DNA of 60,568 nucleotides, the filler included, from Globobulimina sp. (lineage: Eukaryota), in NCBI GenBank assembly GCA_003354225.1. It is 17 parts of 17 records of this genome, joined end to end, with 100 filler letters (N's around TTAATTAATTAA, not from the genome) between each part and the next. Parts side by side here need not be neighbours in the genome. Positions count along the whole stretch, not along the records: positions 14,288 to 17,758 come from PIVH01002717.1; 16 more parts are not named here. One strand, given 5' to 3'. Every line of letters begins with the position of its first letter. The stretch's first letter is position 1. Under the pieces are notes generated by a model. The model ran no database searches, was not told the origin of the DNA, and saw only the letters and a list, made by a program, of their open reading frames with translations. Positions 3,473 to 60,392 of this stretch are shown piece after piece. Position numbers and translations under genes: made by a program.

Positions 3473-3572
3473 NNNNNNNNNNNNNNNNNNNNNNNNNNNN
3501 NNNNNNNNNNNNNNNNTTAATTAATTAANNNNNNNNNNNNNNNNNNNNNNNNNNNNNNNNNNNNNNNNNNNN
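3473..3572. other. Artificial contig-joining spacer (first of 16)
   Basis: 44 N + TTAATTAATTAA (stops in all six frames) + 44 N. Identical spacers start at 7045, 10617, 14188, 17759, 21329, 24899, 28468, 32037, 35605, 39172, 42739, 46306, 49872, 53438 and 57004. Contig lengths fall monotonically from 3472 to 3465. Confidence 0.99.
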
Positions 3573-7044: not shown

Positions 7045-7144
7045 NNNNNNNNNNNNNNNNNNNNNNNNNNNNNNNNNNNNNNNNNNNNTTAATTAATTAA
7101 NNNNNNNNNNNNNNNNNNNNNNNNNNNNNNNNNNNNNNNNNNNN

Positions 7145-14287: not shown

Positions 14288-15522
14288 ATTTGCACCATTC
14301 CTTAAACCAAATCAATGAGACTCAATCTTTGCCGAATGTCGACTTCAAGAATATATTAAATAAGCAGACTGAGAAAAATATTTTCTATTCGAATCTGATT
14401 AAACGGCTGATGTCCTCCGGGGAGCAGCAGGCCAACACTTGGAAGGATTACTTGTTTCATTCCCACAGCAATTTGAATTCCTTTTTGTTTGATGAGAAAA
14501 AGCGACGGTTGAACCAGATCAATATCAATGCGAATGGCGGAGAGCAGGCTGGACAGCAAAGGCATGCTTCGTTTAACAAGCAATTAAATAATTATATCCA
14601 ACAGCTGTTGTTACCGAAATTGATATTAAAGTGCAAGGAAAAGAGCAACAAATTGCAGGAGAAATTGATAGTGTCCTCGCAACTCAGTGTCCAGTGTTTG
14701 AAATCGAGGCAATATTTGGCGCAGAATGCGCATTCTTATTTTAGTGAGCATCACAATGTCAAGGATACGGCATCAACTTCAGGCTCTAGCTCTAGTTCAT
14801 CGTCATCAGAGGAGGGGGAGGAGGAGAAAGAGGCAGAGGTTGCGGTTGAGGCCGAGACGGTGTTGATTGAGGCGGATAAGACGCCCTCGCCTCGGTATCA
14901 TATGAATATACAACAACAGATATCGTACAATAAATATGAGGAACTGCAGAAACAGGCGTCTAAGGATCGGAATGATAGGAACTCGAATGACAGGAATGTG
15001 ATTGTTGGTGGTGAGGAAAGTAAGAAAAGTATGCGGAATAGAAAGAGGAGCGAGAAGGAGGAGGAAGATGTGAGCTCAGATGATGGGGATAAGGATAATG
15101 AGAGTGAGTTGATTGGGAGAGGGAGGAAAAGAAAATTGGTTGATTTGAATGAGAATGGCGAGGAAATGTTACGTAAGAAACATAAAGGAAAAGAATGTGG
15201 CGTTGGATTATGTGATGGTGAGATATGTGTTGATTTTAATAGGATGGAAGTGGATAAGTTTCTGAATTGCGGCATATGTCATAATGGGTTGGGTTCGGAC
15301 ATATTGACCATTAATGAATGTATGGATTCATTTTGTCGCTTGTGTTTGGAGGGCTATTTGGATAAATGTATGGTGCATAATGACACTGCAAAGTGTCCGT
15401 CGTGTAATCATGCTTTGGGGCAAGGATCGATTGCAAGCATTCGACACAAAATATGTAAAGAGGACAAACTGAAAATATCATTGATTGATTTGATAAATAA
15501 AGCAAAAGATGCGTCGACTTGA
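14288..15522 (+). CDS. RING-finger protein, 5'-truncated
   Basis: Acidic/basic low-complexity region with NLS-like RKRK, then CGIC..CMDSFCRLC..CPSC. Confidence 0.75.
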
Positions 15523-15587
15523 AAAATATGCGTTGTATGATATTTTTCCTGTTTTTTTGTTATAAAGTGTAGAATGAAGATATAGGT

Positions 15588-16626
15588 TTATTTATGTGTA
15601 TGTTTGTATTTATTTCTTGGTCTTCCTTCATTATAATAAACTTTTAAATACTTAGATATTTCACATAAACAATTCTCCATTGCCATTAAATTCAAACATT
15701 TTTCTTTCCTGTCCTCAAATAAAATTTCCACATTACATTGATTATCTGTAAAACCTTTTTTTTGTATTTTACAAAGATATTGGATGCATTGATTATAATT
15801 TAAATGTTTTTTATCTTTAAAAAGTCTGTTAATCCCATTAATAGCACCTGGTCCAGCAATGACATATTTACATTCATTAAATATATCTTTATTCCAATAG
15901 CCTAAATCTACGGAGATTTGATATGCCATAAAAGGACCAATTCCTCGCAATTTTAATAATGATTTATAAGTAAAATCTGAACTTTTATTGTTTAAAATAT
16001 CTTTACAAAACTTTGGAATCATTTTTAATGTTTTTTTGAATAAAATGCATGTTCTTCCAATCTTATCACGTTTAATTTTCTTATTCTTATCAATAAAACC
16101 ATAGCTTGGTACAATAAATGCATTCGTAAAAACTTTTTCATTTTTTTTTACTAAATCTCGCAAATTTGTTTCTAATTTTTTTGTATCAAATGCCTGAATT
16201 GTTTGAAAGCCAATTTTATTGAATGTATTTATTTTATTATAAATCCTATAAATAAATATATTAAAAAATAAATTTTCGAAATCGTTTTCAAATTTGGGAA
16301 TAATTTTATTTATAACATATTGTGTTCCTGGATCAATATCTCTGAATACATTGGTAAATCTCCATTGTGACAATATTTTGTCATTCGTCCATGGTGCTAA
16401 CTCATTTTTGCTTCTTTTCTTATAAATGTTATGTCGCTCAATAATATACTGCCAAAATAAATTAATATTTTCTTCATGAAGAATTATTTTTGTGTTATCC
16501 TCAGATAATTTTTGTTTTTTTCTTGCTGGCTCCGGTATATCAGCCTTGTGGATGGATACAGTGAAAAAGAGGTTTAATGAGCAACATGGTACATACATTC
16601 TCTGGCATTTGTTTTCTTCTTGGCAT
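15588..16626 (-). CDS. Homologue of phage DNA thymine-hypermodification enzymes (aGPT-PPlase / 5-hmdU-kinase-associated helical family), one intron
   Basis: ERHNIY..PWTNDKILSQWRFTNVFRDID, YRIYNK, FTNAF, HhH-like LRGIGPFMAYQI..DL, GPGA..G and ENCLCEISKY. Intron 16596..16545 joins MPRRKQMPEN to ADIPEPARKKQK. Confidence 0.8.
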
Positions 16627-16710
16627 CGATGTCTTGCGTCACGACGGAATGTTTAAAAAAAAAACCTAGTTTAATAAAATAATAAGTCATAATAAATAAT
16701 GCAAGACAAG

Positions 16711-17758
16711 TCATTTTTTTGTTTTTTTTTGCCAAACTAAACCTTTCATGTTTTGATCCGTGGAATCATCAATTTCGATATCATGATCATTTCCTTTGGT
16801 ATCACCTGTTACCAATGATTGTAATTCCTTTGTTATGGTTTGCTTTGCATAGTGATATGATCCACAAACTGACTGTTGAATATGCCATTGTTTATATCCC
16901 AATGCTTGTAGATTCCAACAATTATTATTTTTGAATATTCTACACATTACAACTGATCTTGATTTGCCTGCTTCGTCAATTTCATATCGAATTAAATTAA
17001 TATCAGCCGCGGTTTCTTCATATAATAAAATAGTCGGTTCCTTAAATTCTGACAAATCACTTGGTCCGCAAGCACATAATGTAAAAAATAATTGTTTAAT
17101 ATTTTTGTCTTCCATTAATTTGGATAAATTTAACCTAATTTTATGTACTGATTTACCATTAACTTTAGTATCACCACTATGTGATATGTTGTTGTACCGT
17201 CTGGCACCATAATGTACCACTTGTATGCAGTTATCATCATTATCATAAATCAAACACGCACCGCATAAAATATGTGACGAATCAGAGTCTAATTGCAAAA
17301 TAAAATTATTTATAATGTTTGGTTTGCACAATTTATCTTTTTTAAACATTAAATCTGTTGTTGGCACACCTAAAATGTCTGCAATTTCATGGTTTAATTG
17401 TTTACGTTTTGAATGAAGGATATTTGCTTCATTTTCATCCGTAAACACAATCTGATACTCAATTAATTGAGTCTCTTGATCTGTAAACGTAACATTTGAT
17501 ATTTCAACTTTATTATTTGCACCGTATACTTTTTGTACACATTGTATAAATTGATAAACATCAAATTTTGTGCTCATTTCGCATTTTATAATCATTTTAT
17601 ATTTAGGAATTGCAATTATTTGTTTTGATGTTAGCTTAATACCGGTTTTACCATTGGCATTATTATTATTTGTGTTACTATCAAGGAGCGGCTGATACAT
17701 TTTCAATACAGAATCTCTTGAACAGCCACGTAGATAATCATAGATTATTTGTGCTATG
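16711..17758 (-). CDS. TerD-domain protein, 5'-truncated
   Basis: ACLIYD..VHYG..ISHSGD..HKIRLNLSKL..LFFTL..SVVMCRIFK..WNLQALG matches the TerD pattern. Frame is open to the contig edge. Confidence 0.7.
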
Positions 17759-17978
17759 NNNNNNNNNNNNNNNNNNNNNNNNNNNNNNNNNNNNNNNNNN
17801 NNTTAATTAATTAANNNNNNNNNNNNNNNNNNNNNNNNNNNNNNNNNNNNNNNNNNNNTCACCCTATGAACAAGAATAATGATGAATGTGAGCAAATCTG
17901 CATTATTATTTGTATTAATTAGCATTTAATAGGTTATCGATTGCTTATGACATATCATATCATGACAACATAAAATAT

Positions 17979-19439: not shown

Positions 19440-20840
19440 ATGTTTCAGCAATTGTTTTGTAATTTTGGTAAATGGCGTCGTTTTAGTACGTCTGCGTCAG
19501 CAACTTCGAGAAAGTCAATAAATAGAATAGTGCTTACCGGTGGACCATGTGCTGGGAAATCAACTGCATTATCAACCATACAACAATTTTTAATGAACCA
19601 TGGATTTATTGTTCATACGATTCCCGAAGCATCAAAATTACTGCAAATACAAGGTGGCATTAAACCATCCTTCATCACATTAACATCATTTCAAAAAATG
19701 GTAACAAAATTACAGAATGATTTGGAACGCTCATATTACGAATACGCATTAAATACATACAATGCAACCAATAAACCAATCGCAATTTTAATTGATCGCG
19801 GAGTACTCGATGGCAATGCTTACATAACGGATAAAAATGAATTTAATAACATCCTGCAATACGCATTAAATACCAATCAAACAATAGACACAGATGAATT
19901 AATTAATAATAAATATGATATGATATTACATTTAGTAACAGCAGCAAACGGTGCACGCGCGTTTTATACAAAGGAAGCATTCCGAAATGAAACACCACAA
20001 ATTGCTATGGAATTAGATGATAAATTATTAGATATATACAAAAATCACAAAGATCGCAGAATAATAAGCAATATAAAAACGTTTGAAGACAAGTTACAAT
20101 TTATAATCTCGCACATTTCTGATAAATTAAATATACAAAATTTAAGCCGGAAAACGTTACGATTTATAGTTAATATGATGGATAATAATCATTCCATTAA
20201 TAATATTATTGCACAATTGCAACAATACATAGATAACAAAAATCCATTGATTGTAACGTATGTTATTAAGTATTTTTTGCGTGATGATTTTACGCATAAT
20301 GAACAACAAAACGGATATACATTTATACGAGAAACGAATTTATTAAATATAAATACTAACAGCAACAAATCCGTTGGTGAACAAATACAAAATATTTATA
20401 ATAAATCATTGGATATGACATCGTTGTATGAGTATAAACATATTGATATTCCAGAAGAAGCGGGCAGTGCATGGATGGATGCCACTCATTATATGTTAAT
20501 AAAAAACAGTGAAGAATTTGGTCAAACTATAAATGGATCGGAAAAATTAACAAAAACGAGATATAATGAATTGCGGAAATATAATCGGGATATGAATAAA
20601 CATCGAGTAGAGAAAATCAAAATATTTTTTCATTATAAACAACAATTTTATGCATTGGATGTAATTATGAAACCGGAATCTTATAAAGATTCAATGTGGT
20701 TGAAAGTATATAGAACTCCGGGAAATAAATATATGCCAAATGCAACGGATACGGACATTGTTGATGTCCCGCCGTGTATTCAAATAATAAAAAATGTTAC
20801 TTCTAATCCAAATTTCTCATCATATTCATATTCGATGTAG
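19440..20840 (+). CDS. NadR/Ttd14-like P-loop (AAA_28) protein with possible mitochondrial presequence
   Basis: RIVLTGGPCAGKST, IPEA, IDRGVLDG.AY, YDMILHLVTAANGA and RNET. R/S-rich, acid-free N-terminus. Confidence 0.82.
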   Translation: MFQQLFCNFGKWRRFSTSASATSRKSINRIVLTGGPCAGKSTALSTIQQFLMNHGFIVHTIPEASKLLQIQGGIKPSFITLTSFQKMVTKLQNDLERSYYEYALNTYNATNKPIAILIDRGVLDGNAYITDKNEFNNILQYALNTNQTIDTDELINNKYDMILHLVTAANGARAFYTKEAFRNETPQIAMELDDKLLDIYKNHKDRRIISNIKTFEDKLQFIISHISDKLNIQNLSRKTLRFIVNMMDNNHSINNIIAQLQQYIDNKNPLIVTYVIKYFLRDDFTHNEQQNGYTFIRETNLLNINTNSNKSVGEQIQNIYNKSLDMTSLYEYKHIDIPEEAGSAWMDATHYMLIKNSEEFGQTINGSEKLTKTRYNELRKYNRDMNKHRVEKIKIFFHYKQQFYALDVIMKPESYKDSMWLKVYRTPGNKYMPNATDTDIVDVPPCIQIIKNVTSNPNFSSYSYSM

Positions 20841-57003: not shown

Positions 57004-57103
57004 NNNNNNNNNNNNNNNNNNNNNNNNNNNNNNNNNNNNNNNNNNNNTTAATTAATTAANNNNNNNNNNNNNNNNNNNNNNNNNNNNNNNNNNNNNNNNN
57101 NNN

Positions 57104-57597
57104 ATGGTGCAGTTAATTTGATAGAAACAATCAGAAAAGATGTTGAACACAATAATGATAAGAATGTAACTAAAAAAAGGAAAGACAGTTTGTTGATATT
57201 GCTGAAAGATTTGAATCAGAAAGAAATGAATAGTTTAGATTCAGAATGGTGTGATGTGTCAAATGAAAGTAATGCAAACGCAATCATATCATTTATCGCG
57301 GTGGAATATAATAAGAAGGCCATAGATGAAATACCGAGTTGTATTGAAGCTTTGATTGGGCGATTTTATTTGGTAAAATGTGATTTTGTTGTCCCATATT
57401 TGAAAATGCAGTTAGATTTTGATGGGATGGTTATTGTGAATAAAAAGAAGATCTGTGCTTTCTGTCAAAATATCCAAATTAATATGCAAAGATGCAGTGG
57501 GTGTAAATATGTATTTTACTGCAACCGATTGTGTCAACAAAAAGACTGGAAACCAACTCATAAAACCATATGTGCTACAATCAAAAAAGTGATTTAA
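57104..57597 (+). CDS. MYND zinc-finger protein, 5'-truncated
   Basis: CAFC...RCSGCKYVFYCNRLCQQKDWKPTHKTIC. Confidence 0.9.
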
Positions 57598-57992: not shown

Positions 57993-60392
57993 ATGGCCGA
58001 CGTAGCACCAAAAGAAGGCGAATGGATTTTGCGTCCAGCAAAGACGAACTGGATCGCGACATTGTCGAACAAGAATTACTGGGCCTTTTATTTCCTAGTG
58101 ATTGTGGCAATTTGTGTGGGCGGAATTGGTTATTTTGGGGAAGTGGCGCATTATGAGGTGCCGCCATTGTGCGATTTCGTGGGTCCTGATGGCAGCGTGG
58201 TGATATCGGCCAAGAGCATCAATCACGGCGAGGAGGTGTTCCATTTGCGAGGTTTGATGGCTTATGGCTCCTTCTTAGGGGATGGCAGTGAGCGTGGCCC
58301 CGATTATACGGCCGAGGCGTTGCACGAATTAGCAATTGGAATGACCAAACATTACGAATCCAAATTGAAGCACAAGACGCAGCACGATGTGGAAGCCCTG
58401 AAACCCAGAGTCCGCATGGAACTCCGCAACAACGCGTACGATTTGGAGAAGGATGTGATTGTCTTGAATTCGGCGCAAATCTCTGCGTGGAAGAGGATCA
58501 AAACTTATTATCGGCGAATCTTTGCGGGTGCGGACCAAGGAACGTCCACTTTGACGCCAAATATGTTCATAACGAACCCGACGGACATCGCAGATTTGGC
58601 CGGCTTCTTTTTTTGGGGCGCCTGGATGTCTGCGGCGGCGCGACCCGGCGAAGATTACAGTTATACTCATAATTGGCCGCATGAGCCGTTGGCGGGAAAC
58701 ATCCCAACGCCGGCCGTGATTTTGTGGTCGGCCATCTCAGTGTTGATATTATGGTTTGGTTTGGCGGCCACCCTATTTATTTACGGACAGTTGGACCACG
58801 AAAACGAGGACGAAGAGGACATTAAGACGAAAGGACAGCCGTTGACGACCCAGGATTTGGAGACTGGCGTTGTCCGCGAAACGCAGGTGGACTGTTACAA
58901 GTTCTTCGTATTATCGATGCTGGCCTTCGCCATTCAAGTGATAGCCGGGGTTTGCTGCGCCATCGACTTCGTGCGACCGCTCGGCTTCTCGGCCTGTTAC
59001 ATATTGGGTTACAACGTCTTGCGTTCCTATCACGCCACTTTCCAGATCTTCTGGTTCTTTGTGGCTTGGGTTGGAACCACCATTTGGTTTTTGCCGCGTT
59101 TCCAGCGACGAGTGCCCATTGGACAGAAATTTTTGATTAATTTGTTGTTTGGCGGTTGCTGTGTGGTGGCACTTGGCGGCGCCATCGGTATTCCATTGGG
59201 ACAGACCGGGTACATTCAGGGCGAAATGGCGTATTATTTCGGATCGCAAGGCTGGGAATTTATGGAATTGGGCCGCATATTTCAGGATTTATTGTTGTGC
59301 GGCTTTGTGTTATGGATTTTGATCTTATTTCGCGGCGTCTATTCGTACATTACGTGGAACACCATCTGGTCGACTCCGGCCTGGGTGTTTTACGGCAGTT
59401 TGGTGATGGTTTGGTTTTTATTTTTCAGTTTGAAGGTGACGCCGAAAACGAATTTCATAGTGTCGGACTTCTGGCGGTGGATGGTGGTGCATATGTGGGT
59501 CGAGGTAACTTTTGAAGTGTTCACCACTGTGATTGTGGCCTTCTTGTACCGCGAAATGGGATTAGTGAGCAAAAAGGCAGCGGAGCGAGCCACGTATATC
59601 GCGGTGATGTTGTTCTTTTTGACTGCGACCATCGGTGTGGGGCATAATTTTTATTGGATTGCGAAGCCAACGGGAGTCATTGCGATGGGCAGCGCCTTCT
59701 CGACGACGCAGGTGATGCCTCTTATTTTGCTGACGATGGACGCCTGGAAATTCATCCAAATGCGCGAGAAAGCCGAGTTGGAGCAAGCGAAAGGAAATCA
59801 GAAGCATATTATGCGCGGAGTGTGGTTATTTATGTTGGGCGTCAACTTCTGGAATGTGTTTGGTGCCGGAATCTTGGGCTCGTTTATCAATTTACCCGTT
59901 GTCAATTATTACATGCACTCGACATATTTGACTGGCAATCATGCTCATGCCGCCATGTGGGGCGTAAAAGGAAACATTGCCATTGCCGGCGTCTTATTTT
60001 GTGTGCAACATACGGTGCAAGAGAAGTATTGGTCGCCTAAGATCGTGTCGGTGGCGTTCTGGTCGTTGAATGGTGGTATTGCGGCGCAGATGTTTTTGTC
60101 GATGTTCCCCGCGGGTTTGGTGCATATGTACACCGCCATGGCAGAGGGACTATGGGCAGCGCGTACGCACGATATGTATAATTCGACCATCTTCCAGAAT
60201 TTAGCGAAAGGTCGAGCCTTCGGAGGACATATCTTTTTATGGGGTGGCTTATTGCCGTTGGTTTATTTCGTGGTTTCCAGATATTTCTATCTCAAACCAG
60301 TCACGCCGAATATTGATAAGAATCGCAAATATGACTCATTTTGGTTGGATGCTGCGCATACTGCACCTTATTCCACTAAAAAACTCGTGTAA
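57993..60392 (+). CDS. nod: qNor-family heme-iron enzyme with nitric oxide dismutase (Nod) signature residues
   Basis: YGSFLGDG..RGPDYTAEALH, YSYTHNWP.EP..GN, GSQGWEFMELGR, WRWMVVHMWVEVTFEVF, GHNFYW, STTQVMPL, WNVFGAG and HAHAAMWG. 799 aa, complete. Confidence 0.9.
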   Translation: MADVAPKEGEWILRPAKTNWIATLSNKNYWAFYFLVIVAICVGGIGYFGEVAHYEVPPLCDFVGPDGSVVISAKSINHGEEVFHLRGLMAYGSFLGDGSERGPDYTAEALHELAIGMTKHYESKLKHKTQHDVEALKPRVRMELRNNAYDLEKDVIVLNSAQISAWKRIKTYYRRIFAGADQGTSTLTPNMFITNPTDIADLAGFFFWGAWMSAAARPGEDYSYTHNWPHEPLAGNIPTPAVILWSAISVLILWFGLAATLFIYGQLDHENEDEEDIKTKGQPLTTQDLETGVVRETQVDCYKFFVLSMLAFAIQVIAGVCCAIDFVRPLGFSACYILGYNVLRSYHATFQIFWFFVAWVGTTIWFLPRFQRRVPIGQKFLINLLFGGCCVVALGGAIGIPLGQTGYIQGEMAYYFGSQGWEFMELGRIFQDLLLCGFVLWILILFRGVYSYITWNTIWSTPAWVFYGSLVMVWFLFFSLKVTPKTNFIVSDFWRWMVVHMWVEVTFEVFTTVIVAFLYREMGLVSKKAAERATYIAVMLFFLTATIGVGHNFYWIAKPTGVIAMGSAFSTTQVMPLILLTMDAWKFIQMREKAELEQAKGNQKHIMRGVWLFMLGVNFWNVFGAGILGSFINLPVVNYYMHSTYLTGNHAHAAMWGVKGNIAIAGVLFCVQHTVQEKYWSPKIVSVAFWSLNGGIAAQMFLSMFPAGLVHMYTAMAEGLWAARTHDMYNSTIFQNLAKGRAFGGHIFLWGGLLPLVYFVVSRYFYLKPVTPNIDKNRKYDSFWLDAAHTAPYSTKKLV

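Follow-up and report, generated by a model that had tools for sequence, protein, structure and literature searches.

A probable spliced PF18723 gene in a Globobulimina contig, with a possible action on C5-substituted uracil in nuclear DNA

In the foraminifer Globobulimina sp. (assembly GCA_003354225.1), the contig PIVH01002717.1 carries, at positions 15588-16626 of the window (the whole 60.6-kb stretch of DNA that was analysed), a gene which is a real, intact and probably spliced eukaryotic member of the family PF18723, also designated HMUDK_hel or aGPT-PPlase clade 1. The best explanation overall, to which we give even chances, is that of a genuine domesticated PF18723 gene whose product would act on a C5-substituted uracil in DNA; a nuclear role on bases of the 5-hydroxymethyluracil (5hmU) type is plausible but unproven. 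The interest of the gene lies in the fact that every phage examined that hypermodifies thymidine conserves a clade-1 protein, to which no reaction has been assigned, and a solitary branch of the family under strong constraint (42-74% identity across the protist, bacteria of the candidate phyla radiation (CPR) and archaeal-looking contigs) offers a route to that reaction without the phage pathway. Moreover, the intron, the nuclear-type leader and the MYND finger of a relative turn a function on nuclear DNA into a concrete hypothesis. Algal homologues of the family have reportedly been described, and basidiomycete ones are mentioned in the available text of Lee 2018. Given these earlier mentions of eukaryotic homologues, this is not a new kind of gene; what is new is the solitary, foraminiferal, intron-bearing and chromatin-flavoured branch. 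An earlier note, made from the sequence alone, had described a domesticated phage-type enzyme of DNA base hypermodification with an intron and a nuclear localisation signal (NLS); its observations were confirmed and its interpretation is partly supported. Here and below, statements on the phage enzymes refer to the available portions of the cited papers.

Gene structure and splicing

Residue numbers follow the minus-strand open reading frame (ORF) at 15588..16598, of 336 aa; numbers in the spliced protein are lower by 8. The four motifs listed in the earlier note (PWT.D.IL..WRFTNVFR..D, GIGPFMAYQI..DL, GPGA and ENCLCE..KY) are all found in this ORF, where sequence reading gives them as APWTNDKILSQWRFTNVFRDID, GIGPFMAYQISVDL, AGPGA and ENCLCEISKY. 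The gene has two exons and a spliced product of 328 aa. Exon 1 (16597-16626, minus strand, 30 nt) consists of the ATG and nine codons, encoding MPRRKQMPEN, the ATG at 16626-16624 being the first one in frame past a TGA located five codons upstream. It is followed by a 52-nt intron (16545-16596, minus strand) with GT and AG ends (GTATGT...CACAAG on the minus strand), and by exon 2 (15588-16544, minus strand), which opens with ADIPEPARKKQKL and contains 318 codons, with the stop codon at 15588-15590.

The intron has been followed in Logan contigs of four public runs (X1-X4), aligned to positions 15400-17800. In one X3 contig and in one X4 contig, position 16543 is joined to 16596, with exactly 52 nt skipped, and the ends of the skip are CT..AC on the plus strand (cut +1), i.e., GT..AG on the gene strand. 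The joining contig of X3 measures 184 nt and extends 40 nt past the joint on its shorter side, that of X4 measures 1798 nt with a shorter side of 255 nt, and the two runs come from two studies; in X1 and X2 the junction falls outside the coverage of the contigs. Strictly, these contigs establish that the joined form exists, its status as a transcript being left aside. Independent support for the splice comes from the homologue of Bolivina argentea, whose start (MSHKRRNKNNDTLEPTRKKQKIS) resembles the leader in its spliced form, not in its unspliced one (MYVPCCSLNLFF); by tblastn, the N-terminus of the Bolivina protein aligns with the window from 16541 downwards only. The proposed 52-nt GT-AG intron and the basic leader are real. 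A loose end at 17758, present in three runs, was also considered as a splice and ruled out, as it corresponds to the end of the contig or to the spacer.

Family assignment

The PF18723 domain extends over 15630-16469 of the minus strand (residues 44-323) and is matched in Pfam with an E of 6.5e-66 and 223 bits (cut-off, 25) along profile positions 3-277 of 281. This is the single Pfam family matched by the protein, in which no kinase domain (PF18748) is present. All 57 database relatives carry PF18723 as well, the ESM Atlas returned PF18723 clusters only, and in PHROGs the match is phrog_2396 (E 1.3e-66), a group of unknown function. The protein is 28% identical (E 3e-29) to gp55 of phage M6, itself a PF18723 member; Cba120 orf156 and a Glutamicibacter phage protein with the annotation "aGPT-PPlase clade 1" belong to PF18723 too. 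The hidden Markov model (HMM) search, the similarity to M6 gp55 and the structural matches presented below therefore agree with the family proposed from the motifs, that of the aGPT-PPlase proteins associated with 5-hydroxymethyldeoxyuridine (5-hmdU) kinases. The best profile match is not an ordinary repair glycosylase, given that no Pfam family of the helix-hairpin-helix (HhH)-GPD type was found at E <= 0.01.

The partners of gp55 in M6 belong to other families: the kinase gp54 (187 aa, a separate protein) is PF18748, and the transferase gp51 is PF18724, a family with no match in the Globobulimina protein at E <= 0.01, gp51 itself scoring 1.4e-46 with the same library. Table 3 of Lee 2018, in its available form, places PhiW-14 gp72, the C-terminal half of SP10 gp186 and ViI gp160 in the first of two paralogous glycosylase-like lines; the SP10 domain is fused to a kinase, which accounts for the Pfam name HMUDK_hel. 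Many members are likewise named "5-hmdU DNA kinase" by NCBI and UniProt, and the protein studied here has the helical domain alone. Among 2521 candidates, no fused form of greater length was scored, which is weak evidence. PADLOC and NCBIfam hold no family for the protein, and searches of PDB sequences found nothing relevant, a flagellar protein (E 2) and the coronavirus nsp7 (E 0.01, by profile) looking spurious. No literature naming PF18723, HMUDK_hel or IPR040684 was found.

Fold and candidate active site

The family alignment comprises 28 sequences with 23-74% identity, and an AlphaFold2 model built from 28 sequences reached a pLDDT of 88 and a pTM of 0.83. The best match among 48,161 solved chains is 8z2m_A, the 5-phosphomethyl-deoxyuridine (5-PmdU) glycinyltransferase gp46 of phage PaMx11 (Z 10.3, rmsd 4.2 over 219 residues), with 9% identity in the structural alignment. 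Rows 2 and 3 are DUF2419 proteins of queuine salvage (Z 9.1 and 9.0), and rows 1 and 4-26 are made up of gp46 and DNA glycosylases of the HhH type (Z 8.6 to 4.6 after DUF2419). Among the viral models of BFVD, Foldseek found 10 matches at E <= 0.001, with TM values of 0.61-0.78 for phage clade-1 proteins, including SP10 gp186 (E 9e-13, TM 0.75), PhiW-14 (E 4e-9) and two entries named "Pplase1"; the next rows are amino-acid:DNA transferases (probability >= 0.99).

Twelve columns of the family alignment are invariant (R55, F81, N83, R86, D89, A160, F223, D231, G249, G251, C312, and K316), and the protein keeps the consensus residue in all of them and in 17/17 nearly invariant ones. It is a full-length, apparently catalytically intact member of PF18723. 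Two elements deserve attention. One is the GIGPF hairpin of the HhH type (15930-15944, minus strand; residues 219-223), with a nearly invariant G221 and the invariant F223. The other is ENCLCE (15660-15677, minus strand; residues 308-313), in which C312 is invariant and N309 and E313 are nearly invariant, and which provides the candidate catalytic Cys and Glu. In a profile-to-sequence alignment with M6 gp51, GIGPF falls on GFGPW and MENCLCE on VETVLCK.

The clade-2 enzymes to which gp51 and gp46 belong are the ones with known activity. According to Lee 2021, a kinase makes 5-phosphomethyl-dU in DNA and clade-2 enzymes then transfer glycine, serine or putrescine to it via an exocyclic methylene, the Cys and a neighbouring Glu being essential in M6 gp51 and ViI gp247. 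In the 2024 structure paper on gp46, the flipped thymine has a metal on its O4, held there by Glu243 and Thr244, and Cys247 acts as a clamp on the base; the spacing E-T-x-x-C of gp46 matches E308-N309-x-x-C312. The equivalence of the Cys and Glu residues with those of clade 2 may be taken as a lead, not as proof.

Basic leader and chromatin-type additions

The leader contains an NLS-like basic core, RKKQK (16509-16523, minus strand; residues 26-30), identified by eye as part of a motif RKKQKL of the K-K-x-K type. In the alignment the basic motif is kept as RKKQKI in Bolivina and as KKRKL in Nonionella, and it is not present in the prokaryotic homologues, which begin at the domain. Residues 1-31 are disordered in the AlphaFold2 model. 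An additional element is found in the Nonionella stella protein P0059 (EukProt, 422 aa), where a MYND zinc finger (residues 55-97) precedes the basic motif and the PF18723 domain; it matches the solved MYND domains of ZMYND10 and SMYD2 with E from 4e-8 to 1.5e-6. P0002 is the same protein as P0059 with another N-terminus, which could reflect either an alternative isoform or a gene model that is incomplete. No MYND exon was found on the Globobulimina contig, the best tblastn match being on another piece of the window (57442-57573). Another kind of addition is that of P0025, P0040, and P0063 (L171:38-1297), proteins with 41-46% identity from short metagenome or run contigs, which bear C-terminal tails of 70-140 residues rich in Lys, Arg, Ser and Pro, similar to histone H1 or SPKK tails. 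The MYND-fused form of Nonionella fits a nuclear or chromatin role, and the eukaryote-specific additions point to the nucleus.

Relatives and origin

Among the 57 relatives, three EukProt members come from Bolivina argentea (74% identity) and Nonionella stella (60 and 49%), a fourth EukProt protein is the Nonionella P0059, and the remaining ones are metagenome proteins of ~290 aa. The nearest prokaryotic-looking relatives reach 42-63% identity, versus 24-38% for phage genes; no close viral relative was found with the single-protein query, and the best one obtained with an alignment as query has 38% identity. The earlier wording "phage-type" must therefore be corrected, as the nearest relatives are solitary cellular genes and not phage genes. 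A tree of 113 rows was built with the Globobulimina protein, 4 EukProt proteins, 52 other database proteins of at least 250 aa (two shorter ones being dropped), L004, which is the relative encoded in a 1.3-Mb genome, 26 bacterial and 26 viral proteins (every third locus being taken), and 3 named phage proteins. In this tree, the Globobulimina protein groups with that of Bolivina (support 96) and the Nonionella proteins a and c are joined at 92. The foraminiferal group is placed inside a starred set of 11 rows with 7 metagenome proteins, itself inside a starred clade of 42 rows in which there is no named phage. The clade of bacterial islands (support 100) and the phage clades are separate from it.

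The target's clade is formed by solitary genes of recoded CPR bacteria and archaeal-looking contigs. Contigs with recoded TGA account for 4 of the 18 near-clade loci (L004, L176, L177, and L178); the gene at L004:7995-8882 and those of L176-L178 contain 5-13 in-frame TGA codons, and coding density in these four contigs is 0.06-0.75 under table 11 versus 0.77-0.97 under table 25. On other contigs of the near clade, the neighbours are ZPR1-like, archaeal/eukaryal-type PheRS beta, proteasome-ATPase-like AAA, and Trm5/TYW2 genes, which in our reading signal archaea; 5 of the 10 neighbours scanned have no family. As the gene is nested in a solitary cellular clade, its most likely history is one of horizontal transfer into the foraminiferal lineage, followed by domestication. 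Signs of this are found in the intron, in the leader and in the MYND-fused relative, as well as in a G+C content at third codon positions (GC3) which is the lowest among the ORFs measured in the window.

Gene neighbourhoods

The association of the family with pyrimidine metabolism comes from its distant members. In bacteria, relatives are encoded in 579 of the 600 matched stretches listed; among the 80 loci retained, 77 had the gene called, and the bacterial counts refer to these 77. Neighbours were counted within four ORFs, and each label was taken from one representative per cluster. The PF18723 members of these islands are 25-32% identical to the Globobulimina protein. MazG with MazG_C is present in 45/77 loci (54 by seed BLAST anywhere in the locus), an IrrE/M78 peptidase in 39, a 270-aa protein with weak similarity to archaeal thymidylate synthase (TS) in 38, an XRE helix-turn-helix protein in 22, a papain-like peptidase in 17, a Tmk-like kinase in 13, a PF00303 TS in 13, ThsB-TIR in 12, Nmad2 in 11, and ACPS in 11. 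Any neighbour of the TS superfamily occurs in 48/77 loci, and a MazG or TS-like gene in 69/77. PADLOC models gave no match on these islands. The 270-aa protein (L037:5606-6415 and 37 further loci) is usually encoded directly upstream of the PF18723 gene and has no Pfam family; its match to TIGR03283 (E 5.5e-9) gives 36 bits versus a cut-off of 175, and it may be a very divergent enzyme of the TS fold.

In viral contigs, relatives are encoded in 188 of 220 stretches; among the 80 loci retained, the gene call succeeded in 76. Its neighbours include a deoxycytidylate (dCMP) deaminase (28/76), a D5-type primase (26), a TS-like gene (25), DNA polymerase A (18), a gene similar to TET-associated glycosyltransferases (PF20691, E 4.7e-12; 12 loci), an M6-type kinase (8, by BLAST seed), and a clade-2 transferase (2, by BLAST seed). 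The glycosyltransferase-like gene (L100:1780-2595 and 11 loci) lies one or two genes away from the PF18723 gene, which hints at pathways of sugar-modified hydroxymethyl-pyrimidines that include a clade-1 enzyme in viruses. Taken together, gene linkage seems to tie the PF18723 family to C5-pyrimidine chemistry. The claim that the family acts in phage pathways stands as far as this linkage goes; activity is proven for the P-loop kinase and for the transferase of clade 2, clade 1 being dispensable or untested in the available text of the phage papers.

The situation is different in the near clade, whose 18 loci (125 kb) share no neighbour family in more than two loci. Thirteen partner seeds, including M6 gp54 and TS, were run by tblastn against the near-clade loci and the window, and none matched at E <= 0.01. 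Similarly, no partner family (kinase, 5hmU source, or dioxygenase) was found by Pfam among the 41 ORFs of the window, a null result over 17 unlinked contigs which neither supports nor refutes a pathway. The 1.3-Mb genome that holds L004 has one canonical thyA. A MazG_C search was validated in 3/3 island-bearing genomes.

Proposed mechanism

By analogy with clade 2, the enzyme would bind DNA through its HhH lobe and flip out a C5-substituted uracil, either 5hmU or an activated derivative of it. Cys312, aided by Glu308/Glu313, could then attack C6, and the attack would expel the C5 substituent to leave an exocyclic methylene, which a nucleophile or a hydride donor might resolve. The closest cellular relatives are without a linked kinase, hydroxymethylase or dioxygenase, and this favours a role in processing over dedicated writing; it is more likely that the enzyme processes or converts a base in nuclear DNA (e.g., a 5hmU-type base back towards thymine, or to another product) than that it performs the last writing step. 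In the thymidine-hypermodifying phages, the unmodified share of 5hmU is turned into thymine, the passage of Lee 2021 that describes this step naming no enzyme.

Several points weigh against this explanation. Regarding the gene, X3 and X4 are not on record as RNA, no RNA data set is listed for the stretch, and intron-less DNA alleles are formally possible; regarding the leader, its NLS function would follow from a motif only. Regarding the fold, a Z of about 10 can be reached by helical proteins through architecture alone, Foldseek against the PDB gave no row at E <= 0.001, and DUF2419, a free-nucleotide enzyme, is the second and third best fold, so that a substrate other than DNA is possible. 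As for the active site, Glu308 is Glu or Gln across the family and thus not invariant, and hhalign of the protein with M6 gp51 returned a negligible probability (0.9) with an E of 0.064. In addition, when no kinase has acted on it, 5hmU offers in its hydroxyl a poor leaving group, and we know of no 5hmU source in this organism. The 1.3-Mb genome that holds L004 gave no PF18748, PF18722 or PF12851 match, in keeping with a solitary gene, but the PF18748 and PF12851 searches had no positive control. Finally, in the available text of Lee 2021 gp54 and gp51 are enough without gp55, which leaves clade-1 activity undemonstrated; ViI gp160, which was part of the five-lysate mix of 2018, is missing from the table of characterised proteins in the same text; and the available portions of Lee 2018, Lee 2021, the 2024 structure paper, and the 2026 papers on diaminopropane and on T-dioxygenase contain no statement on clade-1 activity.

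Comparison with known systems

Phage clade 1 (M6 gp55, ViI gp160/Cba120 orf156, PhiW-14 gp72, and the C-terminus of SP10 gp186) shares with the Globobulimina protein the family, the fold and the invariant residues. The phage genes adjoin a 5-hmdU kinase, a TS-like hydroxymethylase, a dCMP deaminase, MazG, or a clade-2 transferase, whereas the foraminiferal gene is solitary, eukaryotic and spliced, encodes a basic leader, and branches with cellular solitary genes. Clade 2 (PF18724; M6 gp51, ViI gp247, and PaMx11 gp46/PUGT, 8Z2M/8Z2N) is its best solved structural match, with the HhH hairpin and E-x-x-L-C at places that would be equivalent in an alignment of negligible probability, and the Cys of clade 2 is proposed to attack C6 of 5-phosphomethyl-dU. 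The activity of clade 2 is proven and needs the kinase product; the foraminiferal protein is known from sequence and model alone. The bacterial PF18723 islands (MazG with MazG_C, TS-like, IrrE/M78, and XRE) are predicted systems of nucleotide modification or defence that belong to the same family, although their conserved neighbours are not near the Globobulimina gene or its near-clade relatives. The HhH-GPD glycosylases (Ogg/AGOG, endonuclease III, AlkA, and MutY) and Qng1/DUF2419 share the two-lobed helical HhH fold (Z 5.6-9.1), with no match at the sequence level and with different conserved residues; the conserved Cys of the protein suggests covalent pyrimidine chemistry over N-glycosidic cleavage. 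Lastly, base J, the established eukaryotic thymine hypermodification made in kinetoplastids by the JBP dioxygenase and a glucosyltransferase, would be an analogous outcome if the protein derivatises nuclear 5hmU, although the base J enzymes are unrelated to it, no dioxygenase was found among the 41 ORFs of the window, and this organism is not known to carry a modified base.

Alternative explanations

A first group of alternatives concerns what the enzyme does. It could be the terminal transferase of a nuclear thymine-hypermodification pathway, in which 5hmU, made in DNA by an unlinked TET/JBP-type dioxygenase or dUMP hydroxymethylase and activated by an unlinked kinase, would receive a group from this enzyme to yield a new epigenetic or self-marking base. 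The SP10 clade-1 domain is fused to a 5-hmdU DNA kinase in a phage where, in the available text of Lee 2018, no clade-2 gene was detected, which makes clade 1 plausibly the transferase there; the bacterial and phage loci in which the family is linked to TS-like and kinase-like genes, and the MYND fusion and basic tails of the eukaryotic forms, agree with it, and the lack of neighbours says little since eukaryotic genes need not cluster. On the other hand, neither the 41 ORFs nor the 13 tblastn seeds revealed a partner in the 17 unlinked contigs, the nearest relatives of cellular origin are solitary, with one complete-looking genome devoid of partners, and no literature on modified thymine, or on modified DNA bases in general, was found for foraminifera by title or abstract; we regard this pathway as rather unlikely. 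A broader and slightly more doubtful proposal is that a horizontally acquired, chromatin-targeted clade-1 enzyme serves foraminifera, and the other marine protists with H1-like-tailed copies, to write a C5-modified thymine into nuclear DNA or to rewrite one there. If true, it would add to base J a second system of thymine hypermodification in eukaryotes, and it would reveal the missing clade-1 activity, for example one that makes thymine or an adduct from activated 5hmU at the polymer level. The enzyme might instead work on nucleotides, the solitary clade salvaging or sanitising free C5-modified pyrimidines from prey or hosts and leaving DNA aside. The solitary clade lives in CPR bacteria, archaeal-looking small genomes and a bacterivorous protist group, organisms that would depend on salvage; furthermore, DUF2419 ranks second and third among the solved folds (Z 9.1 and 9.0), and MazG, a nucleotide pyrophosphohydrolase, adjoins 45/77 bacterial members. 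This is nevertheless quite improbable, as the HhH hairpin is conserved, the closest solved structure is that of an enzyme which, in the available text of its paper, binds duplex DNA and flips thymine, and the NLS-like leader, MYND finger and H1-like tails of the eukaryotic forms point to chromatin.

Two further alternatives question the identity of the gene. It might be an ordinary HhH-GPD glycosylase of base-excision repair filed under PF18723, as many HhH DNA glycosylases match the model (Z 5.6-8.6) and the top Foldseek row is an archaeal Ogg with a probability of 0.80. We consider it very unlikely in view of the absence of any HhH-GPD Pfam match at E <= 0.01 versus an E of 6.5e-66 for PF18723, and of profile searches of PDB sequences that find no glycosylase; to our knowledge, the family invariants (KFTNVFRxxD, AGPG and Cys312) are not glycosylase motifs. 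Even harder to credit is an artefact, that is, a prokaryotic gene misjoined to eukaryotic sequence, or else a functionless transfer in decay. The assembly is highly fragmented, with contigs of ~3.47 kb, the GC3 of the gene (0.18) is the lowest of 40 ORFs, and the relatives at 42-63% identity look prokaryotic; against this, a canonical intron interrupts the frame and contigs without the intron exist, both flanking ORFs on the contig look eukaryotic, orthologues with 74 and 60% identity are found in two foraminiferal protein sets, and all invariant residues are intact. The domesticated PF18723 enzyme acting on C5-substituted uracil remains our preferred explanation.

Contig and window context

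The window consists of 17 pieces whose length falls monotonically from 3472 to 3465 nt, separated by 16 spacers (3473-3572, 7045-7144, ... 57004-57103) composed of 44 N, TTAATTAATTAA and 44 N, into which ORFs run directly. As the pieces are unlinked contigs, distances and neighbours beyond ~3.5 kb are not physical, and the contig at 14288-17758 (3471 nt) is the sole physical context of the gene. The GC3 of the gene is at the edge of the range in the window, where the median is 0.29. On one side, a Cys-rich zinc-finger-like ORF (14410-15522, plus strand) has no Pfam family at E <= 0.01. On the other side, 84 nt upstream and on the same strand, a TerD-like ORF (16711-17758, minus strand) is cut by the end of the contig and shows a weak match to PF02342 (E 2e-6). 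Its best named relatives are from Rosalina sp. (48%) and Nonionella stella (50%), in addition to metagenomic TerD and "SCP2" proteins, and because of these foraminiferal relatives the contig has the appearance of nuclear DNA from a foraminifer or from an organism close to it. The PF18723 gene and the TerD-like ORF are both covered by a single X4 contig. Among the neighbours of the prokaryotic relatives, there was no TerD gene to be seen.

Elsewhere in the window, the AAA_28 P-loop ORF at 19440-20837 was considered as a kinase partner and rejected, since it belongs to a different piece and does not resemble the Tmk-like neighbour of the bacterial loci (E 0.64); by eye, its N-terminus resembles a mitochondrial presequence. 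A separate piece encodes a full-length quinol-type nitric oxide reductase (57993-60392, plus strand), which matches 3AYF (E 2e-127, residues 38-773) and contains the Pfam COX1 and NorB cytochrome-c-like domains. With a GC of 0.49 and a GC3 of 0.62, far above the rest of the window, this ORF could be a protist denitrification gene or part of a bacterial contaminant contig.

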